DNA of 64,000 nt from an uncultured Actinomycetes bacterium (GTDB lineage: Bacteria; Actinomycetota; Thermoleophilia; UBA2241): NCBI GenBank assembly GCA_963767005.1, contig CAVYCN010000002.1, positions 345,272 to 409,271 of the forward strand, read 5' to 3'. A program made the position numbers and the translations under genes. This document shows positions 17,334-63,531 of the stretch, one piece after another. Each line of letters begins with the position of its first letter. Position 1 is the first letter of the stretch. The notes beneath the pieces were generated by a model. The model did no database searches and was not told the origin of the DNA. It was given only the letters and a program-made list of their open reading frames with translations.

Positions 17334-17909
17334 ATGAGCGTCAGCCCCGCGACGCGCGCCGTGCTCGTCGGTCTCATCGGCGAGTCGGTCGCAAACGAGA
17401 ACCTCCGCCGTCACATGCTGGCGACCGAGGCGGTCATGCGGGCGCTCGCCGAGCGCCTCGGCCACGATCCCGACCTCTGGGGTCTCGCCGGCCTCGCCCA
17501 CGACCTCGACGCCGAAGAGACCGCGCACGATGCCGCGCGCCACGGGGCGCAGGCGGCCGAGCGTCTGGCCGGCCTGGGCCTGCCCGACGAACTGGTGCAC
17601 GCCGTCGCGGCCCACAACCCCGCGACGGGCACGGTCGTCGAGCGGCCGATCGACGTAGCCCTGATCGCCGCCGACCAGACGACCGGTCTGATCACCGCCG
17701 CCACGCTCGTGCGGCCCGACCGCGCGCTGCCCGAGGTCAAGCTGAAGTCCGTGCGCAAACGCATGCGCGAGGGCGCCTTCGCGCGCGGCGTCGACCGCGG
17801 CTCGATCGCGCGGTGCGAAGAGCTCGGTCTCGGCCTCGACGAGTTCCTCGATCTGGCGCTGCAGGCGATGCAGGGCGTCGCCGCCGACCTGGGGCTGGCC
17901 GGGGAGTGA
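17334..17909 (+). CDS. HD/HDIG domain phosphohydrolase
   Basis: HD motif (LAGLAHDLD...H) in a 190-aa protein. AAGGAGG RBS before ATG 17334. Confidence 0.65.
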   Translation: MSVSPATRAVLVGLIGESVANENLRRHMLATEAVMRALAERLGHDPDLWGLAGLAHDLDAEETAHDAARHGAQAAERLAGLGLPDELVHAVAAHNPATGTVVERPIDVALIAADQTTGLITAATLVRPDRALPEVKLKSVRKRMREGAFARGVDRGSIARCEELGLGLDEFLDLALQAMQGVAADLGLAGE

Positions 17910-18334
17910 GCAGCGACACGGTCGGTGGCCCGCCGCGGTCCGGCGACTCGCAGGTCGCCCCGGTGGGCGGCGACGGCGACCGCGCCTACGAGTACTTCGA
18001 GAGAGGGCGGCGGTTCCTCGCCGAGCGTCATCCGGCGCAGGCCGCCATGTACCTCGAGCGCGCCCGGGCGATCGCCCCCGACAAGAACTCGATCCGCGAG
18101 GCCCTCGGCCGCGCCTACTACGCGCTCGGGCGCTACGACGGCGCGGCGCGCGAGTTCGCGGAGATCGTCGGCCGGGCGCCGGCCACCGACTACGCGCATT
18201 TCGCCCTCGCGCGCTGCCTGCTGAAGCTGGGCGACGTGTCCGGTGCGCGTCGCGAGGCGCGTCTCGCCGTGGCGATGGCGCCCGGCAACGACGACTACCG
18301 CCAGGCGCTCGACGACTGCCTCGAGGCCGGCTGA
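17906..18334 (+). CDS. tetratricopeptide-repeat protein
   Basis: TPR-like repeats (AAMYLERARAIAPD...ALGRAYYALGRYDGAAREF...). GTG overlaps the upstream stop. Confidence 0.55.
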   Translation: MSSDTVGGPPRSGDSQVAPVGGDGDRAYEYFERGRRFLAERHPAQAAMYLERARAIAPDKNSIREALGRAYYALGRYDGAAREFAEIVGRAPATDYAHFALARCLLKLGDVSGARREARLAVAMAPGNDDYRQALDDCLEAG

Positions 18335-18416
18335 GGATCTGCGCGGCGCGCGACCGCGAGCCCGGGGGGTGCGGCCGGCGCGGGGAACGGGGGCGGCGTG
18401 AGCGCCGCCGCGAGGC

Positions 18417-19394
18417 TCAGGCTCTCGGGGTCTGCTGCGGCGCCGCGCTGGGCGGCGTGAGCGCGTCGCTGCCGGCGTGCGCCATGTCGAGCAGGATCTG
18501 GATGCGCTTCTGGATGGGCGGATGCGTGTCGAACAGGCCGGCCGATTCGCGCGTCTTGCGCCCCTTGAGGGGGTTGGCGATATAGAGGTGCGCGGTGGCC
18601 CTCGTCGCGACCTGCAAGGGGCGCGGGTCGGCGGCGATCTTCTGCAGGGCGTGGGCGAGACCGAGCGGGTTGCGCGTGAGCTCGACGCCGCTCGCGTCGG
18701 CTAAGTACTCGCGGTGGCGCGAGACGGCGAGCTGCACCATCCAGGCGAAGAACGGGGCGAGGATGGCGAGCACGATGGCGATCAGAAAGAAGATCGCCCC
18801 TGCGCCGCCGCCGCTGTCGTTGTTACTGCGGCGGCCGCCGCCGAAGCCGCCGAAGAACGTGAAGCGCAGGAAGAAGTCGGCGATCAGGGCGATCATGCCG
18901 ACGAGCACGCCGACGAGCGTCGCGAAGCGGATGTCGAAGTTGCGCACGTGCGACATCTCGTGGGCGATCACACCCTGGAGCTCGTCGCGGCTCATCATCT
19001 GGAGAAGGCCGGCCGTGACCGCGACCGAGGCGTGCTTGGGGTCGCGGCCCGTGGCGAAGGCGTTGGGCGCCGCGTCGGCGATGACGTACACGGTCGGCAT
19101 CGGGATGCCGGCGGCGATCGACATCTCCTCGACCACGTCCCAGAGGATCGGGGCCTGATCGCGCGTGATGCGCTGCGCGCGACTCGCGGCCAGGACGATG
19201 CCGGCCCCGCCGTAGTAGCCGATCAGGCTCCAGACGATCGCGACGATGCCGAAGACACCGAGCAGCCCGATGCCGCCCGTGTACGTACGGAAGGCGGCCA
19301 CGCCGATGGCGAAGCCGAGCGTGAGTAACACGGCGAGGATGACGGCGACCAGGAAGACCGAGTCGCGCTTGTTGCGGGCGATCTGCTCGTACAT
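18417..19394 (-). CDS. htpX: zinc metalloprotease HtpX
   Basis: M48 protease with HEMSH zinc motif, N-terminal TM helices, and a C-terminal EYLADASG block. Confidence 0.9.
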   Translation of the reverse strand: MYEQIARNKRDSVFLVAVILAVLLTLGFAIGVAAFRTYTGGIGLLGVFGIVAIVWSLIGYYGGAGIVLAASRAQRITRDQAPILWDVVEEMSIAAGIPMPTVYVIADAAPNAFATGRDPKHASVAVTAGLLQMMSRDELQGVIAHEMSHVRNFDIRFATLVGVLVGMIALIADFFLRFTFFGGFGGGRRSNNDSGGGAGAIFFLIAIVLAILAPFFAWMVQLAVSRHREYLADASGVELTRNPLGLAHALQKIAADPRPLQVATRATAHLYIANPLKGRKTRESAGLFDTHPPIQKRIQILLDMAHAGSDALTPPSAAPQQTPRA

Positions 19395-19427
19395 GCCGGG
19401 AACGGCGCTCCTTCAGCCGGCCGTCGC

Positions 19428-20123
19428 CTACTGCTGCGGCGTGGGCGGCTGCTGCGGCGGCGCCGGGGGTTGCTGGGCGACCGGCGGCTGCGCCAGGGGT
19501 GCGGGCTGCGGGGCCGGCGCGACCGGGGCCGCGGGCTGCTGGAGCTGCACCGCGGGCGCCGAGAGGCCCAGGTCGACCTTCGGCACCTCGCGGTCGGCCG
19601 CTTCGCCTTCGAAGAACTGGCGCGCCGTGAAGTTGAACATGCCGGCGATCGTGTTGGCCGGGAACGACTGGATCTTCGTGTTGTAGCTCATGACGCTGTC
19701 GTTGTAGAACTGGCGCGCGAACGAGATCTTGTTCTCGGTCGTGGTGAGCTCCTCTTGCAGCGAGATCACGTTCTGGTTCGCCTTCAGGTCGGGGTAGTTC
19801 TCGACGACGGCGAACAGCGAGCGCAGCGTCTGGGTCAGCGTGTTCTCGGCCTGTGCCTGGGCGGCAGGGCCCTGCGCGCCGGCGGCCACCGCGGCGGCCC
19901 GTGCGTTGGTCACCTTGGTCAGGGTGTCCTGCTCGAACTGCATGTAGCCCTTGACCGACTCGACCAGGTTGGGGATGAGGTCGTGCCGGCGCTTGAGCTG
20001 CACGTCGATCTGGCTCCAGGCGTTGTCGACCTGGTTGCGCCCGCGTACGAGGCCGTTGTAGGTGGCCCACAGTGCGAGCGCGAGCACCACGACGATCACG
20101 ATCACCACGATGACTGCAGTCAC
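19428..20123 (-). CDS. lemA: LemA family protein
   Basis: N-terminal TM plus LemA domain (NGLVRGRNQVDNAWSQIDVQLKRRHDLIPNLV). Pro/Gln-rich C-terminal tail. Conserved htpX-lemA pairing. Confidence 0.85.
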   Translation of the reverse strand: MTAVIVVIVIVVVLALALWATYNGLVRGRNQVDNAWSQIDVQLKRRHDLIPNLVESVKGYMQFEQDTLTKVTNARAAAVAAGAQGPAAQAQAENTLTQTLRSLFAVVENYPDLKANQNVISLQEELTTTENKISFARQFYNDSVMSYNTKIQSFPANTIAGMFNFTARQFFEGEAADREVPKVDLGLSAPAVQLQQPAAPVAPAPQPAPLAQPPVAQQPPAPPQQPPTPQQ

Positions 20124-20251
20124 GACGATTCGCTCCTTTTGAAGGTCTTGTCCCTGCGCGTTCTACCCATTCTACGTCAGACGCTCGCAGGCGAGTGGGT
20201 GCCGGCGGGCGGAGCGGCGTCGCAGGTCCTCCCGTACACTGAAACGTTCCC

Positions 20252-21088
20252 GTGAACGGAGATGCTATGCTGGCCGCCATGAACGGCGACGAAAGACCGC
20301 GCGGTCGGGCCGCGCGCCGCGCGCCGCTCAGGTTCGCGGCCGTCGCCGTCGCCTTGGCCGTGCTGGCCGGCGGCGGCTGGGCCGTGGTGCGCGCCCGCGC
20401 GGCCGGCGCCGCTCTGCCGCCGCTGCCGCCCGCGCCCGCCGTGTCGCCGGGCCCCAGCGCGAGCTCCGTCCCAGCGGTGCAGGGCTGGCAGGTCGCCAAG
20501 GCCGTCGGGCCGGTCGTCGCCTACCGGCGACCCTCCACGTCGGCGCCCGTGCGCCAGCGCTTCGGTATCCTCAACCCGAGCGGCTATCCGAGCGTCTTTC
20601 TGGTGCGCGGCGTGCGCGAGGTCGGCGGTGTCACCTGGTACGACGTCTGGCTGCCCATCAGGCCGAACGAGAGTCACGGCTGGATCCGCCAGGGCGGCGT
20701 GTCGATCTACACGACGACCGCCAAGATCGTCGTGCACCTCGCCACCCATCGACTGGTCGTCTACCGCCGCGGCGTCGAGGTCGGCAGCTTCCCGGTCGCG
20801 GTCGGCATGCCGTCGCTGCCCACGCCTCGCGGGATCTACTATATCGACGAAAAGCTCCTGCCGGACGCGCCGGGCGGGCCCTACGGCGTCCTTGCCCTGG
20901 GCCTCAGCGCGTTCCAGCCGCGGCTGCCGAACTGGCCGCTCGGCGGCCCGGTGGCGATCCACGGCACCAACGAGGACGCGCTGATCGGCCAGGCCATCAG
21001 CCACGGCTGCATCCGCATGCACAACGCCGACGTGCTCAAGGTGAGCGCCTGGGTGCCGACCGGCAGCCCGGTGGTCGTCGAACGCTAG
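20252..21088 (+). CDS. L,D-transpeptidase (YkuD domain)
   Basis: YkuD catalytic motif (HGT....SHGCIRM) with an N-terminal signal/TM segment. Confidence 0.8.
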   Translation: MNGDAMLAAMNGDERPRGRAARRAPLRFAAVAVALAVLAGGGWAVVRARAAGAALPPLPPAPAVSPGPSASSVPAVQGWQVAKAVGPVVAYRRPSTSAPVRQRFGILNPSGYPSVFLVRGVREVGGVTWYDVWLPIRPNESHGWIRQGGVSIYTTTAKIVVHLATHRLVVYRRGVEVGSFPVAVGMPSLPTPRGIYYIDEKLLPDAPGGPYGVLALGLSAFQPRLPNWPLGGPVAIHGTNEDALIGQAISHGCIRMHNADVLKVSAWVPTGSPVVVER

Positions 21089-21166: not shown

Positions 21167-21451
21167 TCACCAATACTCGCCCTGAATGAGCTGCATGTCC
21201 TTGGCCTTGCACTTGGGGCAGGTGTACGACTGCGCCTTCTCGAGGAAGAAGAGCTCGCTGCCGCAGGTCTCGCAATGGAATTCGTCGACGATGATGTCGG
21301 CACCGGTCAGGTCGACCGAGGCGATACACTTGCACTGCACGCAGACGGCGGGCATGAAGCGCTTGCGCGGGTCGGTCACACTCACGCCCCAGCGGATCTT
21401 GTCGGTCGTGTAGCCGCATTCCCGGCACACGAAAGTGGTGTATTCTCCCAT
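21167..21451 (-). CDS. small double zinc-ribbon protein (hypothetical)
   Basis: 94 aa with four CxxC pairs (C9xxC12, C36xxC39, C60xxC63, C78xxC81). The function is unknown. Confidence 0.5.
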   Translation of the reverse strand: MGEYTTFVCRECGYTTDKIRWGVSVTDPRKRFMPAVCVQCKCIASVDLTGADIIVDEFHCETCGSELFFLEKAQSYTCPKCKAKDMQLIQGEYW

Positions 21452-21553
21452 GCTCGCAGCCCCTCGCTCGGTCGCCCGTCGCGGTCGTGGTCCGGGGCAG
21501 GGTATCGGCAGATTTGTGCCGCTCGTTGAGCGAAAAGGCGGCTGCCGCCGCCT

Positions 21554-56754: not shown

Positions 56755-57645
56755 GTGAAGGCGACGATCATTGCCGTACCGTACGCCGCAGGGCGTTTCG
56801 CCACAGGCATGGGGCTGGGCCCCGTGAAGTACCTGGCGACGCACCCCGAGGTGGCGCTCGCTGCAGGGGGACACGACGTCGAGGTGGTCGAGGTGCGGCC
56901 CCGCCTCGACCCCGCGTTCGATGAGCCGGCGGCCGTCGCCGTGATCGACACCGCGCTGGCGGATGCCGCGGCGGCGGCCCTTGCCGCGGGGCGGTTCCCG
57001 CTGGTCCTGGCCGGCAACTGCAACAGCGCCCTCGGCACGCTCGCGGGCATGCAGGCGACCGGCGCGACCCGCGTCGGCATCGTCTGGTTCGACGCCCACG
57101 GCGACCTCAACACCCCGGATACCACGCCGGGCGGGTTCTTCGACGGCATGGGCCTGGCCATCGCCACCGGGCGGACGGGCGCCGACATCGCCGCGGCGAT
57201 CGGCGTCCGCCCGGTGCTCGAGGCGCACGTGCTCCACCTGGGTGCTCGCGACCTCGATCCGCCGGAGATCGCCTATCTCGCGCGCGGCGTCATGCCGTCG
57301 ATCGGCGCCGCCGCGCTGCAAGCCGACGTTGCGGGCGCGCCCGACGGCGCGCTCCGCGCTGCCTTGGCGGCGCTGCGCGCCGCCACCGACCAGGTCTACC
57401 TGCACGTCGACATCGACGTGCTCGCGGCCGGCTTCGCACCCGGCGTCGACTTCCCGTCCGCCGGTGGCCTGTCCTTGCCCGACCTCGAGAACGCGCTCAG
57501 GCGGGTCGTCGCCGAGCTGCCGGTGCGCGCCGCGGCGCTCACCGCCTACGATCCCGATCGTGACCGCGGCGAGGTCACCCTGCGCTCGGGGCTGCGTCTG
57601 GTGACCGTGATCGCCGACGCGCTGCAGGCGAAGGCCGGCCGCTGA
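56755..57645 (+). CDS. arginase/agmatinase/formiminoglutamase-family ureohydrolase
   Basis: Binuclear Mn-site motifs of the arginase family (GNCNSALG, WFDAHGDLNTP, HVDIDVLAAG). AAGGGGG RBS before GTG 56755. Substrate specificity is not determinable from the sequence. Confidence 0.8.
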   Translation: MKATIIAVPYAAGRFATGMGLGPVKYLATHPEVALAAGGHDVEVVEVRPRLDPAFDEPAAVAVIDTALADAAAAALAAGRFPLVLAGNCNSALGTLAGMQATGATRVGIVWFDAHGDLNTPDTTPGGFFDGMGLAIATGRTGADIAAAIGVRPVLEAHVLHLGARDLDPPEIAYLARGVMPSIGAAALQADVAGAPDGALRAALAALRAATDQVYLHVDIDVLAAGFAPGVDFPSAGGLSLPDLENALRRVVAELPVRAAALTAYDPDRDRGEVTLRSGLRLVTVIADALQAKAGR

Positions 57646-57665
57646 GCCGCCCGACGCCGGCCGGG

Positions 57666-58193
57666 TCAGTACGAGATCAGCGTGAAGACGTCGACGCCCG
57701 GCAGCTTGTCGCGGCCACCGAGGTCGGCGAGCTCGATGAGGAACGCGGCGCCGACGACGTTACCGCCCATCTTCTGGGCGAGACGCACCTTCGCAGCGGC
57801 CGTGCCGCCGGTGGCGAGCAGGTCGTCGTGGATCAGGACGTTCGTGCCGGGCGCGATCGCGTCGGCGTGCACCTCGAGCGCGTCGGTGCCGTACTCGAGC
57901 TCGTACGACTCGGACACAGTGTCGAACGGCAGCTTGCCGGGCTTGCGGGCGCACACGAAGCCGGCGCCCAGCGCGTAGGCGAGCGCCGAGCCCAGGATGA
58001 AGCCGCGCGACTCGGCCCCCAGCACCACGTCGACGTGACGGCCGGCCGACCACTCGGCCATGCGGTCGACGGCTGCGCGCAGCGCGCGCGGGTCCTGGAG
58101 CAGCGGCATGATGTCGCGAAAGAGGATGCCGGGCTTGGGAAAGTCGGGGATCGCACGGATGCGTGCGGCGAGATCGACCTGGGCGTCCTGCAC
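57666..58193 (-). CDS. apt: adenine phosphoribosyltransferase
   Basis: PRTase motif (VLIHDDLLATGGTA) with a conserved Apt N-terminus (DFPKPGILFRDI). Confidence 0.9.
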   Translation of the reverse strand: MQDAQVDLAARIRAIPDFPKPGILFRDIMPLLQDPRALRAAVDRMAEWSAGRHVDVVLGAESRGFILGSALAYALGAGFVCARKPGKLPFDTVSESYELEYGTDALEVHADAIAPGTNVLIHDDLLATGGTAAAKVRLAQKMGGNVVGAAFLIELADLGGRDKLPGVDVFTLISY

Positions 58194-58239
58194 GGTGTCC
58201 TCCTGGTGCCGTGGCGCGGGCTGACCGGTCCGCGAGCCG

Positions 58240-58959
58240 CTAGACCGTGAGCCGTCGGATGTAGCGCGTGAGCAGCAGCTGCTGGAGCTGCGACATGGCC
58301 TGGGCGAGCTCCTCGAGGGCGTCGAGGGCCTCCTGACGTTGCTCGGCCCGGCGCGAGCGCAGCGCCGGCAGGATGACCTGCTCGATGAGGCCGCCCTCGC
58401 GGTCGACGGCGCTCTTCATGGCGCGCAGGTTCTTGGGCCGCAGACCGGCGCGCGCCAGGCGCGCCGCCGTGGCGACCACGCTGGCCTCGAGCTCGGTGTA
58501 GCGGCGCACGCCGCTCACCTGGCGGCCCTTGACGAGCTCGTACTCCTCGAGCTCGGACAGCAGGGCGCCGTCGGCGCCGGCGAGCTGCTGCAACTCCTCG
58601 GCGGTGAACTCCTTCTCGCCCGCGGGATTGGGCACGAAGTCGGCCTTGCGCAGGCCGCCACGCGCCGGCCCGGCCACGCCCGCCGGCGCGCGCTCGATCT
58701 CTTTGCGGATCACCTTGAGCGGCAGGTAGTCGTCGCGCTGCATGGCGAGCACGCGGATGAGACGCTGGTAGTCGTCGCGCGAGAAGAGCCGGTAGCCGCC
58801 CTTAGTGCGGCGCGGCGCGACCAGGCCCTGCTCCTCGAGGTAGCGCAGCTTGCTGACGCTGATGTCGGGGAACTCGCCCTTGAGGCGGTCGACCACCGCC
58901 CCGATGGTCATGAGCTTCTCGTCGCCGATGTCGAACAGGACTTCGGTCTTCTCGTTCAC
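58240..58959 (-). CDS. MerR-family transcriptional regulator (Rv1828/FtsR-like)
   Basis: N-terminal MerR HTH (MTIGAVVDRLKGEFPDISVSKLRYLEEQGLVAPRRTKGGYRLFS...QRDDYLPLKVIRKEI) closely resembles the conserved actinobacterial Rv1828-type regulator found downstream of the FHA gene garA. Confidence 0.75.
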   Translation of the reverse strand: MNEKTEVLFDIGDEKLMTIGAVVDRLKGEFPDISVSKLRYLEEQGLVAPRRTKGGYRLFSRDDYQRLIRVLAMQRDDYLPLKVIRKEIERAPAGVAGPARGGLRKADFVPNPAGEKEFTAEELQQLAGADGALLSELEEYELVKGRQVSGVRRYTELEASVVATAARLARAGLRPKNLRAMKSAVDREGGLIEQVILPALRSRRAEQRQEALDALEELAQAMSQLQQLLLTRYIRRLTV

Positions 58960-59411
58960 GGCGTGATGAAGGTGAGCTTGTACTTGCCGACCTGCAGCTC
59001 GTCGCCGTCGAGGAGGGTCTGGCGCTCGATGCGCCGGCGATTGACGTACGTGCCGTTGAGGCTGCCCTGGTCGGCGATCACGTAGGCGTCGTCCTCGCGC
59101 GTGACCACGGCGTGGTTGCGCGACACGGTGACGTCGTCTAAGAACACGTCGGAGTCGGGGTGGCGCCCGATCGCGGTGCGCTCGCCCTTGAGCTCGTAGG
59201 TCTCACCCGCGCGCCCACCGCCGCTGCGGATGACGAGCGTGGCGCGCTCGGGCAGTTGACGCGAGAGCGGCGGCAGCGTTTCGGGGCTGTCGCCGGGCGA
59301 GTAGTTCATGGTGGTCTGGGGGTCCGTCTTGTCGGCGATCAGGCTGGCGCCGCAGCGCACGCAGAAGTTGACGCCCTCGGAGTTGCGGTACCCGCAGTTC
59401 GGGCAGAACAC
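58956..59411 (-). CDS. FHA-domain protein with N-terminal zinc ribbon (GarA/OdhI-like)
   Basis: CPNCGYRN...CVRCG zinc ribbon, then an FHA domain (TAIGRHPDSDVFLDDVTVSRNHAVV...YVIADQGSLNGTYVN). Confidence 0.8.
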   Translation of the reverse strand: MFCPNCGYRNSEGVNFCVRCGASLIADKTDPQTTMNYSPGDSPETLPPLSRQLPERATLVIRSGGGRAGETYELKGERTAIGRHPDSDVFLDDVTVSRNHAVVTREDDAYVIADQGSLNGTYVNRRRIERQTLLDGDELQVGKYKLTFITP

Positions 59412-59415
59412 GGGT

Positions 59416-59697
59416 CTAGTGCCCGCCGCTTGCGCCTTCGCCTTCGGCGAGGCCGGCCGCGGGATGCTTGCCGGCGAGGATCTCGGAGAGGCGTGAGACG
59501 TCGTCGGCGGTGATGATCGACTCGCCGGCCGCGTGCTCGCGCTGCAGACGCAGGACGAGTTCGGCCCGCAGGATGTCGATCTTGCCGTGGAGGATGCGCC
59601 GCTGACGGGAGACTTCCTGCTCCTCGGCGGTCAACGTGCCGATGAGCGCCTTGAGCTCCTCGTCGGACAGCGACACGAAGTCGATGATGTCGTCCAT
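59416..59697 (-). CDS. small coiled-coil protein (hypothetical)
   Basis: 93 aa of helical/heptad-like sequence (SLSDEELKALIGTLTAEEQEVSRQRRILHGKIDILRAELVLRLQ). AAAGGA RBS before the ATG. It is separated from the FHA gene by 4 nt. Confidence 0.5.
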   Translation of the reverse strand: MDDIIDFVSLSDEELKALIGTLTAEEQEVSRQRRILHGKIDILRAELVLRLQREHAAGESIITADDVSRLSEILAGKHPAAGLAEGEGASGGH

Positions 59698-59732
59698 CGC
59701 TGGTCCTTTTCGTCGTACCGACCGGGAGAGTT

Positions 59733-59761
59733 ACCTTACAGGACCCGAAGGCAACCTTCAA
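59733..59761 (-). promoter_or_regulatory. putative sigma70 promoter (TTGAAG-17 nt-TAAGGT) for the coiled-coil-FHA-MerR operon
   Basis: Hexamers read on the minus strand about 35 nt upstream of the small-protein ATG. They lie in the 128-bp gap after the DUF4388 gene. Confidence 0.4.
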
Positions 59762-59825
59762 CTTCACGTTGAGATATCCCCGTTGACGGACGCACCGACG
59801 CCGCAGCGCGCGCCCGGCGCGACGC

Positions 59826-60365
59826 TCAGGTCACGAGGCGCACGACGTCGCGCTCGCGCAGCCGGGCGACCGCGAGCAGCACGTCGTACTCGTCGGCCAT
59901 GCCCTCGACGAGGGCACCCGCGACGATGTCGCCGACGCTGCGCCGGCCGGGCCCGAGAAAGCCGAGCACGGTGGCCTCGACCGAGTCGTGCGGTTCGCCG
60001 CCGAGCAGTGAGACCAGGCCGTACGACGGCAGGGCGTCACGCAGCCGGCCGATCTCGTCGACGCGGCGCATGGCCTCCATGAGGAGCGAGCCCGTGGGCA
60101 GGTCGGCCGCCGGCGCGTCGCCGGGGTCGAGGTCGGGATCGAATACGAAGCCGCCCTCCTTGAGACCGATCAGGGCGTAGAAGGCACGCTCGCCGACCAG
60201 CGCTCCGCACGAGGCCGACGTGAGGGTGCCGCCGCGAAAGGCGAGGCGCCCGGCCGGGGAGCCGTCGGCCTGGGTGACGTCGAGCACGCCCGTCTTGCCG
60301 CCCAGCGCCGTGATCTCGACGAGGTCGCACAGCGCAAGCTCCGAGAGGTTGCCCGTGAAGCTCAT
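59826..60365 (-). CDS. DUF4388 domain protein
   Basis: The N-terminus (GNLSELALCDLVEITALGGKTGVLDV) matches the DUF4388 pattern. It is divergent from mglB-mglA. Confidence 0.65.
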   Translation of the reverse strand: MSFTGNLSELALCDLVEITALGGKTGVLDVTQADGSPAGRLAFRGGTLTSASCGALVGERAFYALIGLKEGGFVFDPDLDPGDAPAADLPTGSLLMEAMRRVDEIGRLRDALPSYGLVSLLGGEPHDSVEATVLGFLGPGRRSVGDIVAGALVEGMADEYDVLLAVARLRERDVVRLVT

Positions 60366-60504
60366 GATCGTCCTCGAGCGGCCGTTTCCACGCCCGGCAG
60401 TCTACCACGCGGCCTCGCCTTCCCTCCCCCGCCGGCTCATGTTCGGCGCCTCGCGCGACGATACAGCAAGCGGTGCAACGCAGGCACTCTTGCGGCGGCT
60501 GCCT

Positions 60505-60513
60505 GATATACTG
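60505..60513 (+). promoter_or_regulatory. putative extended -10 promoter (TGATATACT) for mglB-mglA
   Basis: A TGn-TATACT element in an otherwise GC-rich divergent intergenic region, about 35 nt upstream of the mglB GTG, which has a GAAAGGAGA RBS. Confidence 0.4.
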
Positions 60514-60546
60514 CGCCAAAAGCGCGCCGTGCTCGAAAGGAGACCT

Positions 60547-61047
60547 GTGGCGAAGCGGAAAGGCCTCGTCATCAACGACCGCCAGCTCGACCTGTGCGAC
60601 GACCTCCTGCGCAAGCTCAAGGACGTCACCGGGTCCACCTTCCTGGCGCTCATCTCCACCTCGGGGCAGCCGATCACGACGGCTTCCGACGACTATCACC
60701 CCGAGACCCTGTCGCTCGCGTCGCTCGCAGCGAGCTCGTTCGCCGCGACGCAGCAGCTCGCCAGCATCCTCGACGAAAAGGAGTTCACGCTCCTCTTCCA
60801 CGAGGGCAAGACCTCGAACCTGCACGTGTCCCAGGTCTCCGACCAGGTGCTGCTCATCATCACCTTCGGGCGCGAGACCCAGGTCGGCAAGGTGCGTCTG
60901 TACACGCAGCGCGCAATCGAGGTGCTGCGCCCCATCTTCGAGGGCTCAGACGAAGAGAACGAAGCGCTGTCGGTCGACGACGATTACGAAGTCACGGCCG
61001 GCAAGGCGATCGACGACCTGTTCGCCGACCTCGAGGGACAGCCCTGA
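60547..61047 (+). CDS. mglB: roadblock/LC7 domain protein (MglB-like GTPase-activating protein)
   Basis: 166-aa roadblock-fold protein immediately upstream of, and 1 nt from, the mglA ATG. The start GTG 60547 is in frame within ORF 60220..61047. Confidence 0.7.
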   Translation: MAKRKGLVINDRQLDLCDDLLRKLKDVTGSTFLALISTSGQPITTASDDYHPETLSLASLAASSFAATQQLASILDEKEFTLLFHEGKTSNLHVSQVSDQVLLIITFGRETQVGKVRLYTQRAIEVLRPIFEGSDEENEALSVDDDYEVTAGKAIDDLFADLEGQP

Positions 61048-61048
61048 G

Positions 61049-61627
61049 ATGCCCCTGATCAACTTCGCCGCGCGCGAGATCAACTACAAGATCGTCTACT
61101 ACGGCTGCGGGCTCTGCGGCAAGACGACGAACATCCAGTACATCCACCGCAAGATCAACCCTTCGGCGCGCGGCAAGCTCGTCTCGATCGCCACCGAAGA
61201 GGAGCGCACCCTCTACTTCGACTTCCTGCCGCTCAGCCTCGGCACGGTCAAGGGCATGCAGACCCGCTTCCACCTGTACACCGTGCCCGGCCAGAGCTAC
61301 TACAACGCGAGCCGCAAGCTCGTCCTGCAGGGCGTCGACGGTGTGATCTTCGTGGGCGACTCGCAGATCACCCGCCTGGACGAGAACGTCGAGAGCTACC
61401 TGAACCTCTGGGACAACCTCATCGCCCAGGGCGACGACCTCTCACGGCTGGGCTTCGTGATCCAGATGAACAAGCGCGACTTGATCGACATCTTCTCGGT
61501 CGAGGACCTGAACGAGTTGCTCAACCACACGCAGTCGCCGGTGATCGAAGCCTGCGCGGTGAGCGGTCTCGGCGTGTTCGATACGCTCAAGCTCTGCTGC
61601 AAGCAGGTGATCGCGAAAACGGCCTGA
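61049..61627 (+). CDS. mglA: Ras-like small GTPase MglA
   Basis: Strong match to the MglA family (INYKIVYYGCGLCGKTTNIQYI...DRTLYFDFLPLSLG...TRFHLYTVPGQSYYNASRKLVLQGVDGVIFVGDSQ...NKRDL). Confidence 0.85.
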   Translation: MPLINFAAREINYKIVYYGCGLCGKTTNIQYIHRKINPSARGKLVSIATEEERTLYFDFLPLSLGTVKGMQTRFHLYTVPGQSYYNASRKLVLQGVDGVIFVGDSQITRLDENVESYLNLWDNLIAQGDDLSRLGFVIQMNKRDLIDIFSVEDLNELLNHTQSPVIEACAVSGLGVFDTLKLCCKQVIAKTA

Positions 61628-61716
61628 GGGCCGTCCGCTCCAGCGCGGATCGACGCTCGGTCCCCTCGTCCCACCTGTGGCGCCCTCGTCCCCCTGTGCC
61701 GCCGGACCTCGGCGTG

Positions 61717-63531
61717 CTACTGCTCGGTCCCGACACGCTCGATCCAGTCCTTGGGCGCGTAGGTCGACACGAACGAGTCCACGAAGAGCACGCGGCCGTT
61801 CTGCCGGACGGTACGCACAACCTTGACCGTGCGGCCGGCGAAGCCCTGCTCGTACGACACGATGCCCTTGGGCAGCGTGTCGTCGGTGATCACGCGCGGG
61901 TGCTGACGCGAGGTGTCCGTCGGCACCCAGTCGTAGAACGCGCTCGTCGTGAAGGTGACGGTGCGCCCCGTGCTGCCCACCAGCACCACGGTCACCTGGC
62001 CGCCGCCGGCCCAGCAGCGCAGCAGGAGCGCGTGGCCCGTGTCGTTGCGAAAGCGCAGGTCCTGCGAGCCGTAGGCGACCTGCGCGTCGCGGCCGATCGG
62101 GTAATGGTCGATCCAGAAGTCGTGCGGATGCCGCTCCACGACCGGCAGGCCGGCGAAGAAGACGGCGTTGAACAGCGTCGTCGCGAACTGGCACAGACCA
62201 CCGCCGACGCCGAGCCGCAGCACTCCGCCCTCGATCACCGGGGCGTAGTCGAAGCCACGGTCGAGCGTGCGCGGCCCGAGGGTCTGGTTCAGCGAGAAGA
62301 CCTCGCCCGGCTTGATCACGGTGCCGTCGCAGAGCTTCGCGGCCTGGATGATGTTCTGGGCGCGCGGCTTGTTCGTCTGGTCGTAGTAGGTCGTGAACTG
62401 GGAGCCCAGGCCGTCGAGCCCGAGCGACGTGAGGTCCTCGGTCGTGGTCGTGGGCTCGAGGGTCGTGAGCGGCACGACCACCTGGCGCAGGCCGGGCTGG
62501 CTTGCCACATAGTCCATGTCCGACAGCAGGGTGGGCATGTCCAGGCCGAAGCCGGCGCTGCTCGGCGTGATCGACACCTCGCGGCCCTTGACCACTACGC
62601 GGGCGTTCACGGCGGGGTGGTCCGTGAAGGCGAAGAGGCGGTGCAGCCTGGCGCGCGCCCGCGGATTGTCGAAGGTCAGCGGGCTCGTCGTCGCGTCCGC
62701 GCCGGTGTTCACCGTCAGCATGGTCGCCATGGTCGCCGGGCTCAGGTCGATCTCCTGACCTCTGAAGCGCAGCCGCAGCGGGCTGCTCAGGTACGTCGCG
62801 GCCTGCTCGGCCGCGACCTGGGCGGTGGCCGTGGTCACGGTCGGCTGGCTCGCCTCGAGGGGCACCGGCCCTTCGTAGCGGCCCCAGGCTGCCAGCGCCT
62901 GCTCGAGTCGCAGCCGCAGCGCGGCCGCGTCGATGGCGCTGCCCGTAGTGGCAGGACGCACGCTGACGGTCGTGCCGACCAGCACGAGGCGGGCGTCGCG
63001 GGGCGCCGTCTCGACATACGGCGCGATGCGCTCGACCGCGGCGGCGAGAGTGGTGACGTTGCAACGCACGACGGGTGCCACGACGCGGTGGCCGCCGAGC
63101 CACAGACGCAGCCCGAGCACGTCGACGCGGCCCGCCTGAGCGGCGCGTCGGGCCGTCGCCGCGGCGTCGACGCGCAGGCCCAGGTCGGCGAGCGTGAAGC
63201 GGACCGCGCCCTGCTTTGTCTGCAGCAGCACGGTCCCGAGGTCGCGCGCCGCAAGGAGTCCGGCGATGGCCGTGCGCGCCGGCGCCGGGCCGTCGCCGGC
63301 GAGACTGCGGTCGCCGGCCGTCACGCCGAAGGCGACACGGCCGTACAGGTAGCCCTGCAGGGCGCAGAATGCGATGACCACGACGGCGAGGCCCATCAGG
63401 GCGACGCGCAGCAGCGGACCGACGCGACGTGCGCCGGCCCCTCCTCCCCGGGCCGCGTGCGCCGGCCGGCGGCGGCGCCGCGCGCCGCCGCTCTCAGCTG
63501 GGTCCACGGGTGGTTCGGGATGGCTCGTCAT
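61717..63531 (-). CDS. VanW-domain protein with peptidoglycan-binding-like N-terminal region
   Basis: The C-terminal VanW domain (GGGLCQFATTLFNAVFFAGLPVVERHPHDFWIDHYPIGRDAQVAYG) is preceded by an N-terminal TM helix. Confidence 0.75.
   Translation of the reverse strand: MTSHPEPPVDPAESGGARRRRRPAHAARGGGAGARRVGPLLRVALMGLAVVVIAFCALQGYLYGRVAFGVTAGDRSLAGDGPAPARTAIAGLLAARDLGTVLLQTKQGAVRFTLADLGLRVDAAATARRAAQAGRVDVLGLRLWLGGHRVVAPVVRCNVTTLAAAVERIAPYVETAPRDARLVLVGTTVSVRPATTGSAIDAAALRLRLEQALAAWGRYEGPVPLEASQPTVTTATAQVAAEQAATYLSSPLRLRFRGQEIDLSPATMATMLTVNTGADATTSPLTFDNPRARARLHRLFAFTDHPAVNARVVVKGREVSITPSSAGFGLDMPTLLSDMDYVASQPGLRQVVVPLTTLEPTTTTEDLTSLGLDGLGSQFTTYYDQTNKPRAQNIIQAAKLCDGTVIKPGEVFSLNQTLGPRTLDRGFDYAPVIEGGVLRLGVGGGLCQFATTLFNAVFFAGLPVVERHPHDFWIDHYPIGRDAQVAYGSQDLRFRNDTGHALLLRCWAGGGQVTVVLVGSTGRTVTFTTSAFYDWVPTDTSRQHPRVITDDTLPKGIVSYEQGFAGRTVKVVRTVRQNGRVLFVDSFVSTYAPKDWIERVGTEQ

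Follow-up and report, generated by a model that had tools for sequence, protein, structure and literature searches.

Our analysis indicates that the mglB-mglA gene pair of an uncultured soil actinobacterium of the class Thermoleophilia and the adjacent rsiG-FHA-ftsR operon are two separate units that are neighbours in one Thermoleophilia lineage. In the reading that we favour (probability roughly 0.6), MglAB belongs to a type IV pilus polarity module, and the link between the units is transcriptional, via the anti-sigma factor RsiG and the sigma-28-family factor WhiG; mglBA would probably be transcribed partly through the RsiG/WhiG/c-di-GMP circuit. The neighbours of mglBA do not appear to form a dedicated signalling unit with it, and direct coupling to the FHA protein or the MerR regulator is unsupported. 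The window analysed is a contig stretch of 64,000 nucleotides, and its relevant features are listed in Table 1. Genes were taken from the open reading frame listing and from a separate gene prediction for the contig of origin (ENA ERZ25039473 contig_16833), and both place all six genes where a preliminary description of this DNA had put them. Families were assigned with Pfam and NCBIfam profile models.

Table 1. Genes and candidate regulatory elements in the window.
Feature	Position	Strand	Basis
ftsR, MerR-family FtsR/Rv1828 orthologue, 239 aa	58240..58959	-	NCBIfam NF050798
Zn-ribbon and GarA/OdhI-like FHA protein, 151 aa	58956..59411	-	Pfam FHA, Zn_Ribbon_1
rsiG, homologue of single-motif RsiG-type c-di-GMP-dependent anti-sigma factors, 93 aa	59416..59697	-	Pfam PF22802
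Operon promoter with overlapping palindrome, full span	59733..59774	-	
Predicted rsiG-FHA-ftsR promoter: -35 TTGAAG, 17 nt, -10 TAAGGT	59756-59761 (-35); 59733-59738 (-10)	-	phylogenetic footprinting
FtsR-type inverted repeat TCTCAAC-N5-GTTGAAGGTT, overlapping the promoter	59753-59774	-	footprint
PATAN (DUF4388/PatA_N) single-domain protein, 179 aa, divergent from mglB	59826..60365	-	Pfam PF14332
Extended -10 of the PATAN gene, TGGTAGACT	60399-60407	-	
Distal mglBA promoter candidate, sigma-28/WhiG type	60436..60464	+	conserved motif
Its elements: -35 CTCA, 17-nt spacer, -10 GACGATAC	60436-60439 (-35); 60457-60464 (-10)	+	
Predicted proximal mglBA promoter, extended -10 TGATATACT	60504..60512	+	conserved AT-rich block
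mglB Shine-Dalgarno AAAGGAGA	60536-60543	+	
mglB, Roadblock/LC7 GAP partner, 166 aa, GTG start	60547..61047	+	Pfam Robl_LC7, PDB matches
mglA, group-1 MglA Ras-like GTPase, 192 aa	61049..61627	+	PDB matches, motifs
Sigma-28-type motif before a small Zn-ribbon ORF	21502-21530	-	same motif type

The mglB-mglA pair and its divergent PATAN gene

Homologues and motifs mark the GTPase as a true group-1 MglA with MglB as its partner, and not as a generic Era/Ras-like protein, in agreement with the MglA-family assignment proposed before. It matches M. xanthus MglA (PDB 6hjh, 6h17, 5ymx) over its full length (residues 1-189, E=5e-72, about 60% identity) and T. thermophilus MglA (PDB 3t12), also over the full length (E=6e-64); Pfam and NCBIfam call it an Arf-type small GTPase. 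In the alignment the P-loop GCGLCGKT, TVPGQ and NKRD are intact, and switch I keeps Arg-Thr (EERTLYFD), i.e. the arginine finger is preserved. MglA identity among 80 Thermoleophilia species is 85-98%. The G+C content of mglA (0.617) is lowered at codon positions 1 and 2, but its GC3 of 0.95 is the same as that of its neighbours and therefore gives no sign of recent transfer.

The partner gene ends one nucleotide before mglA (TGA G ATG), confirming the spacing given before. Its product matches MglB of M. xanthus (PDB 6izw_B, E=5e-17) and of T. thermophilus (PDB 3t1r, E=6e-15), with the C-terminal IDDLF helix included in the matches, and scores 76.5 bits with the NCBIfam Thermus MglB model, under the cutoff of 200. 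The pair is the sole plus-strand unit within a long minus-strand array. The gene divergent from it indeed encodes a DUF4388 protein (PF14332, 64.6 bits at a cutoff of 25, residues 4-104), named PatA_N in the contig annotation and lacking a receiver domain. With a custom HMM, the PATAN gene was found adjoining mglB in 64 of 79 loci and was absent from 13 loci long enough to reveal one. An association of PATAN with MglAB neighbourhoods has already been published (Makarova 2006, as related in PMC4316618).

The rsiG-FHA-ftsR operon

Since only 4 nt separate the rsiG stop from the FHA start, and the last 4 nt of the FHA gene (GTGA) are also the first of ftsR, the three minus-strand genes look like one operon. 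The preliminary description had recognised this operon but called its first gene product merely a small coiled-coil protein. Profile and structure matches identify this 93-residue helical protein as RsiG, an anti-sigma factor that c-di-GMP arms against WhiG: the RsiG-like model PF22802 scores 59.9 bits (cutoff 27), and RsiG of S. venezuelae (PDB 6pfj, E=3e-9) and R. radiotolerans (PDB 7lq2/7lq3/7lq4, E=8e-8) are matched. It carries the E-x3-S-x2-R-x3-H-x3-D motif (EQEVSRQRRILHGKID), which is kept in 76/76 orthologues, with H in 58 and Q in 18.

By homology, the FHA and MerR proteins are the pan-actinobacterial GarA/OdhI-FtsR pair. This assignment follows from several observations, namely that the MerR protein reaches 206.7 bits with the equivalog NF050798 TF_FtsR_Actino (cutoff 150), in agreement with its earlier description as Rv1828/FtsR-like, that GarA (3e-26) and OdhI (3e-24) are the best PDB matches of the FHA protein, the next FHA protein following at 3e-11, and that gcvH adjoins the operon in divergent MglA loci. 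The MerR protein also matches Pfam MerR_1 and is annotated with Rv1828_C on the contig, and among NCBIfam models the FHA protein scores highest with OdhI (118 bits, under its cutoff of 200). Where GarA and OdhI have their ETTS phospho-site, 66 of 75 orthologues have xTTxx[YF] (QTTMNY in the window); the CxxC...CxxC ribbon is found in 74 of the 75. The pairing also agrees with the literature, in which FtsR is a division regulator whose gene always lies downstream of odhI/garA (PMC6683498).

A generic sigma-70 consensus scan of 57600-61800 found no promoter, but phylogenetic footprinting bore out the claim that the operon has one of its own. The box T[CT]AA[CG]-N5-[GC]TTGA precedes rsiG in 59/76 MglA loci and 54/76 MglA-less loci (0.01 expected per 143 nt) and becomes a near-perfect palindrome, AACCTTCAACC-N3-GGTTGAAGGTT, in L090-type loci. 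FtsR may bind this palindrome, and since it overlaps a sigma-A-type promoter, FtsR probably autoregulates the operon.

Conserved neighbourhood of two independent units

The co-conservation that had been suggested as a check holds only from one side. In 80 MglA-bearing Thermoleophilia species genomes, every sufficiently long locus has the order apt-ftsR-FHA-rsiG-(PATAN)-mglB-mglA-vanW, and mglBA adjoins the operon in all informative loci, also in those whose FtsR is down to 34-41% identity. Seen from the operon, 80 RsiG-selected metagenome loci all contained rsiG-FHA(-ftsR) and none contained MglA, MglB or PATAN; the upstream flank exceeds 3 kb in 25 of these loci and 6 kb in 19, and all 25 with more than 3 kb have the operon without mglBA. 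In MglA-less loci the gene directly 5' of rsiG is a GMPP/PMM fusion or pgsA, and the window has its GMPP/PMM fusion immediately past vanW. No genes separate rsiG from the upstream backbone gene in relatives, which makes mglBA a lineage-specific, oppositely oriented insertion into the actinobacterial gcvH-garA-ftsR backbone.

It had been proposed that this neighbourhood is a polarity or cell-cycle signalling unit made of a GTPase switch, an STPK readout and a transcription factor. Spelled out for MglA/MglB, PATAN, FHA and MerR, a Ser/Thr kinase would phosphorylate a component, FHA would read the mark, and the output would be transcriptional through FtsR and spatial through MglAB, e.g. placement of the division site or growth pole. 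The persistent co-localisation would fit such a unit, as would the role of FtsR in division, the adjacent cell-envelope genes (vanW/PG-binding and DUF881), and the loci without PATAN (including L060), where one divergent region of 160-430 bp holds both the mglB promoter and that of rsiG with its FtsR box. Nevertheless, we consider it very improbable: no Ser/Thr kinase gene was called within 10 kb, no FtsR-type box lies 5' of mglB in the window or in 78 of 79 loci, mglBA is a separate transcription unit on the opposite strand, the operon occurs without mglBA, and the GarA/OdhI-FtsR pair has metabolic and ftsZ roles in organisms without MglAB.

Alternatively, mglBA-PATAN(-vanW) might have landed beside rsiG-FHA-ftsR in an ancestor by accident and been carried along by synteny, with no regulatory or functional tie. 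The wide occurrence of the operon without mglBA agrees with this, and so do the equally conserved apt, vanW and hflX flanks and a 2014 survey in which group-1 mglA neighbourhoods vary widely, with partners usually encoded elsewhere (PMC4316618). mglBA is no more tightly syntenic with rsiG than with apt and vanW, and adjacency alone therefore carries no functional weight. What speaks against an accident, which we regard as unlikely though a serious possibility, are the region 5' of mglB and the pilus associations described below.

Candidate promoters of mglBA

Two elements precede mglB. TGnTATACT or TTGTTATACT sits 38-76 nt ahead of mglB in nearly every one of the 79 loci, the most divergent included, and this AT-rich block contrasts with the 72% G+C of the genome. 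About 50 nt upstream of this proximal extended -10, we identified the motif CTCA-N16/17-G[ACT]CGATA, predominantly GACGATA, in 49/79 loci (57/79 if TTCA or CTAA is allowed as -35). Of the strict matches in 1.37 Mb on both strands, 50/57 fall at this spot. The spacing is fixed (17 in 45 loci, 16 in 12) while spacer and flanking bases vary, and distances to the mglB start, checked by hand on the locus sequences, are not uniformly divisible by 3 from locus to locus, so the motif is non-coding. The preliminary description did not include this element.

Published criteria for WhiG targets are a -35 of CTCA or T(A/C)AA, N16-17 and GCCGA, in which a single mismatch is tolerated outside the central CGA (PMC12871210). 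The distal motif agrees with them in -35, spacing and central CGA, with A in place of C at position 2 of the -10 in most loci, and might thus be a promoter used by WhiG. The same motif type is intergenic before a REC-PAS-GAF-HD-GYP-type c-di-GMP signalling protein (locus L075), and HD-GYP-type c-di-GMP proteins are a typical, repeatedly reported WhiG target class; in 80 MglA-less loci there was no intergenic occurrence. Both the agreement and the HD-GYP case argue against an accidental neighbourhood, under which the motif would serve an unrelated regulator or a different group-3 sigma factor, e.g. the SigF-like one. Its absence from about 22/79 loci, including the whole gcvH/pil subgroup, is more easily reconciled with an accident. 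This conserved element is the more plausible link between the units than FHA or MerR, and RsiG may control it. Still, the -35 CTCA is WhiG1-like and RsiG is reported to bind WhiG2 and not WhiG1, which makes RsiG control uncertain even with a sigma-28 factor at the site. No whiG gene is shown within the 64-kb window and the 20-kb loci.

Type IV pilus context

RsiG, PATAN and MglAB are each independently tied to type IV pili in the literature, a further point against an accident: type IV pilus genes in Rubrobacter are under RsiG-WhiG control, PATAN domains bind PilB1/PilC, and MglAB sets pilus polarity in Myxococcus and Thermus. The 64-kb window contains no pil genes. In the divergent MglA subgroup, pilB, pilT and pilC lie 3-9 kb from mglBA, and pilB carries an MshEN c-di-GMP-binding domain; the sigma gene beside pilC is SigF/SigB-like and not WhiG, which again fits an accident. 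Together with the motif upstream of mglB, this pil neighbourhood is new relative to the preliminary description.

Type IV pilus polarity is thus the output that we infer for MglAB. In the reading favoured here, the ancient actinobacterial operon encodes a single-motif RsiG, a GarA/OdhI-like phospho-threonine switch with a zinc ribbon and FtsR as a MerR-type division regulator; its promoter is of the sigma-A type and is overlapped by the FtsR-type palindrome. The second unit, the mglB-mglA bicistron with its divergent PATAN gene, is a standard polarity switch of a group-1 MglA GTPase and an MglB GAP: MglA-GTP would mark one pole, and an MglB dimer at the opposite pole would stimulate GTP hydrolysis through the arginine finger of MglA, the PATAN protein most likely coupling MglAB to the pilus motor (PilB/PilC). 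The units would be linked through transcription and not through protein-protein contact. The proximal extended -10 looks constitutive, and the sigma-28/WhiG-type promoter would add a second input: at low c-di-GMP RsiG would release WhiG and mglBA would be boosted together with pilus genes, at high c-di-GMP WhiG would be sequestered by RsiG.

Comparison with known systems

One divergent locus (L065) reads pgsA-GMPP/PMM-DUF881-DUF881-vanW-[mglA-mglB]-PATAN-gcvH-rsiG-orf96-FHA-ftsR-apt and corresponds, with insertions, to the M. tuberculosis-type backbone order pgsA-DUF881-gcvH-garA-ftsR. The FHA protein has the TT phospho-site in common with GarA/OdhI and differs by its added zinc ribbon. The 25-bp FtsR motif described for C. 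glutamicum (AACCCTAAAGTAAAGGTTGAGGGTA) and M. tuberculosis (PMC6683498) is similar to the operon palindrome. Finally, the H variant of the RsiG motif in the window also occurs in RsiG of Conexibacter woesei, for which binding of c-di-GMP and of WhiG has been demonstrated (PMC8325347).

Gene content and genomic setting

All six genes of the preliminary description were recovered at exactly its coordinates, both in the ORF list and by independent gene prediction on contig_16833 of ENA ERZ25039473 (442,882 bp), the public contig of which the window is a part. The genome has a G+C content of about 72%, and the closest relatives of all proteins come from MAGs labelled Thermoleophilia or Actinomycetota. 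The organisms carrying the locus are uncultured, and every protein of the locus is a member of a known family. The remaining window is of classical housekeeping character (carB, nusA, infB, pnp, RNase J, ftsK, recA, rny, miaB, dapF, hflX, dut and apt), with identities inferred from the N-termini of ORFs filtered by GC3 and from the annotation of the contig.

The Roadblock/LC7 partner had been placed 1 nt from the GTPase gene, and the junction sequence indeed has the mglB stop 1 nt before mglA. On the minus strand, rsiG lies 4 nt from the FHA gene, and the ftsR start overlaps the FHA stop by 4 nt (GTGA). The gene described as divergent DUF4388 is so arranged relative to mglB and encodes a single-domain PATAN protein according to Pfam. 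Recent horizontal transfer of mglA is rejected in view of a GC3 of 0.95; codon positions 1 and 2 account for its lower G+C. Screening 57500-62000 against Rfam at E<=1 revealed neither an RNA family nor a riboswitch.

Features of the locus and of comparison loci. L065 and L075 are MglA-bearing Thermoleophilia loci; L090 is an RsiG-selected metagenome locus without MglA.
Feature	Locus	Position	Strand	Remark
Cys-rich zinc-ribbon ORF	window	21167-21451	-	94 aa
Sigma-28/WhiG-type match CTCAACGAGCGGCACAAATCTGCCGATAC	window	21502-21530	-	intergenic
ftsR	window	58240-58959	-	
Zinc-ribbon-FHA gene	window	58956-59411	-	
rsiG	window	59416-59697	-	
Candidate rsiG-FHA-ftsR promoter	window	59733-59774	-	FtsR-type inverted repeat at 59753-59774
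PATAN/DUF4388 gene	window	59826-60365	-	
Extended -10 element TGGTAGACT	window	60399-60407	-	upstream of PATAN
Candidate sigma-28/WhiG-type mglBA promoter	window	60436-60464	+	
Candidate proximal extended -10 of mglBA	window	60504-60512	+	
mglB	window	60547-61047	+	
mglA	window	61049-61627	+	
VanW + PG_binding_4 gene	window	61717-63531	-	convergent with mglA; position kept in essentially all MglA loci
aroE-pilB-pilT-pilC-sigma	L065	578-5514	+	just beyond apt-ftsR-FHA-rsiG
96-aa ORF	L065	7831-8121	-	between rsiG and the FHA gene
CTCA-N17-GCCGATA	L075	17653-17680	+	
REC-PAS-GAF-PAS-HD_5 ORF	L075	~17697-20453	+	
rsiG-zinc-ribbon-FHA-ftsR	L090	7900-9486		

MglA, MglB and the PATAN protein

MglA/MglB is the paradigm of a bacterial Ras-like polarity switch; to our knowledge, work on it has been confined almost entirely to gliding and twitching diderms (Myxococcus, Bdellovibrio, Thermus). 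Assignment of the GTPase to the MglA family proved correct: a PDB sequence search matched it to M. xanthus MglA over residues 1-189 of 192 (E=5e-72; about 60% identity over the full length) and to T. thermophilus MglA over its whole length (E=6e-64), and every defining feature of group 1 is present. Group-1 proteins are characterized by an arginine finger beside the switch-I threonine, TVPGQ in place of DxxGQ, the G1 motif GxxxxGKT and the G4 motif NKxD (PMC4316618); the alignment contains the P-loop GCGLCGKT, EERTLYFD (R-T in switch I), LYTVPGQ and MNKRDL. Judged by sequence, the protein is a group-1 MglA, with GTP binding, MglB-stimulated hydrolysis and polar localisation as predicted properties. 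Its identity is 85-98% across 80 Thermoleophilia species, with values for neighbouring proteins dropping to 35-40%.

In all loci with enough sequence, mglA is paired with mglB. MglB reaches 37 bits against Pfam Robl_LC7 (cutoff 23) and matches PDB 6izw_B (5e-17) and 3t1r_A (6e-15), with an alignment that runs through the C-terminal helix IDDLF. Its 76.5 bits against the Thermus-type MglB equivalog (NCBIfam NF052242) fall short of the cutoff of 200; since this model is lineage-specific, the score weakens the label of a Thermus-type equivalog, not that of MglB. In a 2014 survey, group 1 was found in many phyla and Actinobacteria with groups 2 and 5 only (Wuichet & Sogaard-Andersen, PMC4316618), and our literature search returned no paper pairing MglA with Thermoleophilia.

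[quoted passage not shown] The GTPase described here, in contrast, has the group-1 arginine finger, TVPGQ and NKRD and not the group-2 features, and no genes for a CvnA histidine kinase or CvnC/DUF742 were called within 10 kb of the locus. Lacking these two members of the four-gene unit and encoding a group-1 GTPase, the locus is not a conservon.

The PATAN protein scores 64.6 bits against Pfam PF14332 (cutoff 25, residues 4-104), and its gene adjoins mglB in 64 of 79 loci, whereas 13 genuinely lack it. The C-terminal ~75 residues (about 105-179) are predicted to be helical and have no Pfam match, and a Pfam search with the C-terminal 80 aa returned nothing. In loci of the L065 type, the protein is just 110 aa long and has no such region. 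A single-sequence AlphaFold2 model of the PATAN protein was unusable (mean pLDDT 36). Upstream of PATAN, most non-window clades (e.g. the MglA-bearing loci L040 and L046, minus strand) share a conserved GGCAGGAAG-N~15-CTGCGAAGCT, which may represent a promoter of the ECF-sigma type; in the window clade, the extended -10 element TGGTAGACT takes its place.

The rsiG-FHA-ftsR operon

The gene reported to encode a small coiled-coil protein is real, and its 93-aa product can be identified more closely as an RsiG homologue for which binding of c-di-GMP and WhiG is predicted. It scores 59.9 bits against Pfam RsiG PF22802 (cutoff 27), matches the solved structures 7lq2/7lq3/7lq4 from R. radiotolerans (8e-8) and 6pfj from S. 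venezuelae (3e-9), and carries the full c-di-GMP motif E-x3-S-x2-R-x3-[Q/H]-x3-D as EQEVSRQRRILHGKID, with His replacing Gln. The motif is kept in 76 of 76 extracted orthologues (H in 58, Q in 18). The H variant is also found in RsiG of Conexibacter woesei (Thermoleophilia), for which binding of both c-di-GMP and WhiG has been demonstrated (PMC8325347). No FliA/WhiG-like gene is encoded in the window, and a cognate whiG was likewise not located in the 20-kb loci. A search with a 45-aa fragment of R. radiotolerans RsiG gave a single match, on an 874-bp contig without genomic context. A further Thermoleophilia-type RsiG homologue, P0132 (132 aa, on a 531-bp contig), has two tandem motif helices, EEENEISYKRRVLHGKID and DEEQEVSYRRRILHGKID, and represents either an artefact of assembly or an independent intragenic duplication of the kind suggested for the origin of twin-motif RsiG.

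The FHA protein is closest to GarA (3e-26) and OdhI (3e-24) among PDB entries, followed by the next FHA family at 3e-11. Where GarA and OdhI have their phospho-site (ETTS), 66 of 75 orthologues have xTTxx[YF], and the rest have at least one Thr. A CxxC...CxxC zinc ribbon is added at the N-terminus, and the score against the OdhI equivalog (NCBIfam NF041660) is 118 bits with a cutoff of 200; for these two reasons we name the protein GarA/OdhI-like and not an OdhI equivalog. Its gene lies directly upstream of ftsR across 160 loci, in line with the stated rule for odhI/garA (PMC6683498). The MerR protein had been called Rv1828/FtsR-like, and its 206.7 bits against the FtsR equivalog NCBIfam NF050798 (cutoff 150) bear this out; its C-terminal domain is annotated as PF28507 Rv1828_C on the contig.

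A generic scan of 57600-61800 for sigma-70 promoters and terminators found nothing, and promoters were identified solely through cross-species footprinting. Although the generic scan was blank, footprinting agrees with the proposal that the minus-strand operon has its own promoter, which is conserved across clades: a sigma-A-type promoter upstream of rsiG is common to all of them and reads TTGAAG-17-TAAGGT in the window. An inverted repeat, TCTCAAC-N5-GTTGAAGGTT in the window, overlaps this promoter. In loci of the L090 type, the repeat is a near-perfect 25-bp palindrome, AACCTTCAACC-N3-GGTTGAAGGTT, positioned over the -35 element of a TATAAT promoter. Published FtsR sites are 25-bp inverted repeats of the type AACC...GGTTGAGGG, and the palindrome has the half-site and the 25-bp architecture common to the C. 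glutamicum and M. tuberculosis FtsR sites (PMC6683498). The core pattern was found upstream of rsiG in 59 of 76 MglA loci and in 54 of 76 MglA-less loci, with 0.01 expected by chance. We infer that FtsR may autoregulate rsiG-FHA-ftsR via this candidate palindrome. Upstream of mglB, an FtsR-type box is absent except in the MglA-bearing locus L060, where the intergenic region is shared. The window does not include ftsZ.

Synteny of loci with and without MglA

We compared the gene neighbourhood from two directions. Searching a single genome of each species for MglA yielded 80 loci, which without exception come from Thermoleophilia-type MAGs, and every one of sufficient length has the order apt-ftsR-FHA-rsiG-(PATAN)-mglB-mglA-vanW, even where FtsR identity is down to 34-41%. 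In the most divergent subgroup (L058, L065-L070, L073, L076-L078, L080), gcvH and an extra ORF are also present, and L065 reads pgsA-GMPP/PMM-DUF881-DUF881-vanW-[mglA-mglB]-PATAN-gcvH-rsiG-orf96-FHA-ftsR-apt. This is, with insertions, the well-known actinobacterial pgsA-DUF881-gcvH-garA-ftsR neighbourhood, the gene order of M. tuberculosis; only the mglBA unit occupies the opposite strand. The extra ORF of 96 aa encodes an acidic, helical protein without Pfam match and occurs at the same position in L058, L066-L070, L073 and L076-L078.

For the second scan, metagenomes were searched with an alignment of RsiG sequences whose first member was Rubrobacter-like, which gave another 80 loci (L083-L162). 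Every one that reaches far enough contains rsiG-zinc-ribbon-FHA-ftsR, often followed by apt. No MglA, MglB or PATAN gene was found in these 80 loci, where the flank upstream of rsiG exceeds 3 kb in 25 and 6 kb in 19; the gene directly upstream of rsiG is a GMPP/PMM fusion or proS-pgsA. In the window, the GMPP/PMM fusion gene lies just beyond vanW. We conclude that the rsiG-FHA-ftsR operon is old and self-standing, and that vanW-mglAB-PATAN is a lineage-specific insertion beside it; the VanW/PG_binding_4 gene appears to belong to the inserted block and not to the backbone.

The co-conservation that the preliminary description proposed to test is thus one-sided: wherever MglA is present, the genes invariably lie together, but the FHA/MerR/RsiG operon also occurs without MglAB. 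A dedicated signalling unit of GTPase, FHA protein and MerR regulator is not upheld, and the co-localisation of these genes for the most part reflects the conserved synteny of the backbone.

Candidate promoters upstream of mglB

Two footprints upstream of mglB stand out from otherwise variable sequence. The first, in nearly all loci, is an extended -10 element TGnTATACT. The second lies ~50 nt further upstream, reads CTCATGCTT-N-GACGATAC, and has a CTCA-GACGATA spacing of 17 nt in 45 loci and of 16 nt in 12 loci; the window version is CTCA-17 nt-GACGATAC, 83-111 nt upstream of mglB. It agrees with the published WhiG/FliA-type consensus and with search rules for Actinomycetota (-35 CTCA or T(A/C)AA, spacer of 16-17 nt, -10 GCCGA(TAA) with the central CGA intact and at most one mismatch, less than 200 bp from the start codon). 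The second footprint is non-coding, since the frame in which it stands to mglB differs between loci. We rejected CTCATG as an alternative mglB start, which is in frame in the window and not elsewhere; in the MglA-bearing locus L012, a check by hand showed that the frame runs into a stop. A scan for the classical TAAA-N14-17-GCCGATAA gave two matches in the window and none in the cluster (2.65 in shuffles), missing the mglB element because its -35 is CTCA.

Out of 57 strict matches to the sigma-28-type motif on both strands of 1.37 Mb, 50 fall at the mglB position. Among the other seven, two are intergenic and correctly placed. One, in L075, is immediately upstream of the REC-PAS-GAF-PAS-HD_5 ORF, which encodes a signalling protein of the HD-GYP type; such c-di-GMP turnover genes are a typical class of reported WhiG targets. 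The other is the near-perfect match in the window, ~50 nt upstream of the 94-aa zinc-ribbon ORF, which has weak Pfam matches to HypA/DZR and is divergent from rimP-nusA. The MglA-less loci have no intergenic strict match and a single one inside the ftsR coding region of L087.

A possible link to type IV pili

In Rubrobacter, RsiG-WhiG controls type IV pilus genes, and in Myxococcus and Thermus, MglAB sets pilus polarity. In Synechocystis, the PATAN domain is the output domain and binds PilB1 and PilC, and proximity of PATAN genes to MglAB genes has been noted (PMC4316618). We found no pil genes in the 64-kb window. Loci of the divergent MglA subgroup (L058, L065, L066, L067, L069, L073, L076-L078, L080) have an aroE-pilB-pilT-pilC-sigma cluster 0.5-5 kb beyond apt. 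Its PilB has an N-terminal MshEN-type c-di-GMP-binding domain (NF053729, 67 bits, cutoff 38), and PilT shares ~51-52% identity with a PilT probe from P. aeruginosa.

Two further candidates in this cluster were rejected. The sigma gene 3' of pilC is not whiG: it scored 178.7 bits for SigBFG and 90.6 bits for FliA_WhiG, both under cutoff, and is SigF/SigB-like, with sigma-F 1l0o as the best PDB match (7e-28) and no WhiG chain among the matches. A conserved T(C/A)AA-N16-GTCGATA at exactly -227 of pilB in eight loci is not a promoter. The stop codon of aroE overlaps the start codon of pilB (TGATG), and the site lies inside the aroE coding sequence (NATSVG...PVD), so that its conservation is coding conservation.

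Interpretation

A genuine MglA/MglB(+PATAN) module in Thermoleophilia, adjoining a conserved rsiG-garA-like-ftsR operon, is secure. With moderate confidence, we propose that the predicted promoter of the sigma-28/WhiG family drives part of mglBA transcription and that mglBA acts in the polarity of type IV pili; that RsiG and c-di-GMP gate this promoter is proposed with lower confidence. A bolder reading, to which we assign a probability of about 0.3, is that the Ras-like MglA/MglB switch and its PATAN adaptor were recruited into the c-di-GMP/RsiG/sigma-WhiG regulon in one lineage of uncultured Thermoleophilia. Under such recruitment, rsiG and mglBA, the target operon of RsiG's sigma factor, would stand back to back, and rsiG would be controlled by FtsR, the division regulator, and translated together with a metabolic switch of the GarA type. 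Cell cycle and nutrient state (FtsR, GarA) and the level of c-di-GMP might then jointly time type IV pilus polarisation in a monoderm actinobacterium.

A genuine and strongly conserved MglA/MglB pair in Actinomycetota extends the system to a monoderm phylum, and the sigma-28/WhiG-type promoter beside the gene of a c-di-GMP-armed anti-sigma factor offers a testable regulatory hypothesis. As a side observation that may have independent value, single-motif rsiG is the first gene of a garA-like/ftsR operon under an FtsR-type palindrome across 160 loci. This placement links the c-di-GMP/WhiG switch to actinobacterial regulators of division and 2-oxoglutarate metabolism, a link that is not mentioned in the RsiG and FtsR literature compared.

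Comparison with known systems

The pair shares with MglAB of M. xanthus and T. thermophilus the P-loop, intrinsic arginine finger, TVPGQ and NKRD, the position of mglB immediately upstream of mglA in one operon, and the Roadblock fold signature and C-terminal helix of MglB. A nearby PATAN gene is likewise a trait of some group-1 systems (PMC4316618). It differs in its host, a high-G+C actinobacterium (Thermoleophilia), in the predicted sigma-28-type promoter, in being embedded in a gcvH-garA-ftsR neighbourhood, and in that the partners Frz, RomR and SgmX are not visible. The PATAN/DUF4388 domain is shared with the cyanobacterial PatA-type regulators PixG, PixE and LsiR, whereas a receiver domain is absent and an uncharacterised helical tail of ~75 aa is present.

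Like the single-motif RsiG proteins of R. radiotolerans and C. woesei, the protein is small, with one motif on a long helix (Schumacher et al. 2021, PMC8325347), and its H variant is that of the biochemically tested C. woesei protein, also of Thermoleophilia. Here, in contrast, rsiG is the first gene of a GarA-like FHA/ftsR operon under an FtsR-type box, a context that goes unmentioned in the two RsiG papers compared (FHA and FtsR, 0 occurrences each).

The closest counterpart of the backbone operon is the OdhI/GarA-FtsR pair of Corynebacterium and Mycobacterium, where the FHA gene likewise directly precedes ftsR and is coupled to it in translation (Kraxner et al. 2019, PMC6683498). The likeness extends to an FHA domain closest to GarA/OdhI, the N-terminal TT motif, a score above the cutoff of the FtsR equivalog, an upstream palindrome with the common half-site GGTTGA(G/A)GG, and, in divergent loci, the neighbours gcvH, pgsA and DUF881. 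The arrangement described here differs from it in the N-terminal zinc ribbon and the score under the OdhI cutoff, in rsiG preceding the FHA gene, and in having apt downstream where the four-gene cluster has genes for a bifunctional nuclease and a second MerR protein. Finally, the characterised FtsR box sits on ftsZ, whereas the FtsR-type box described here sits on the operon's own promoter.
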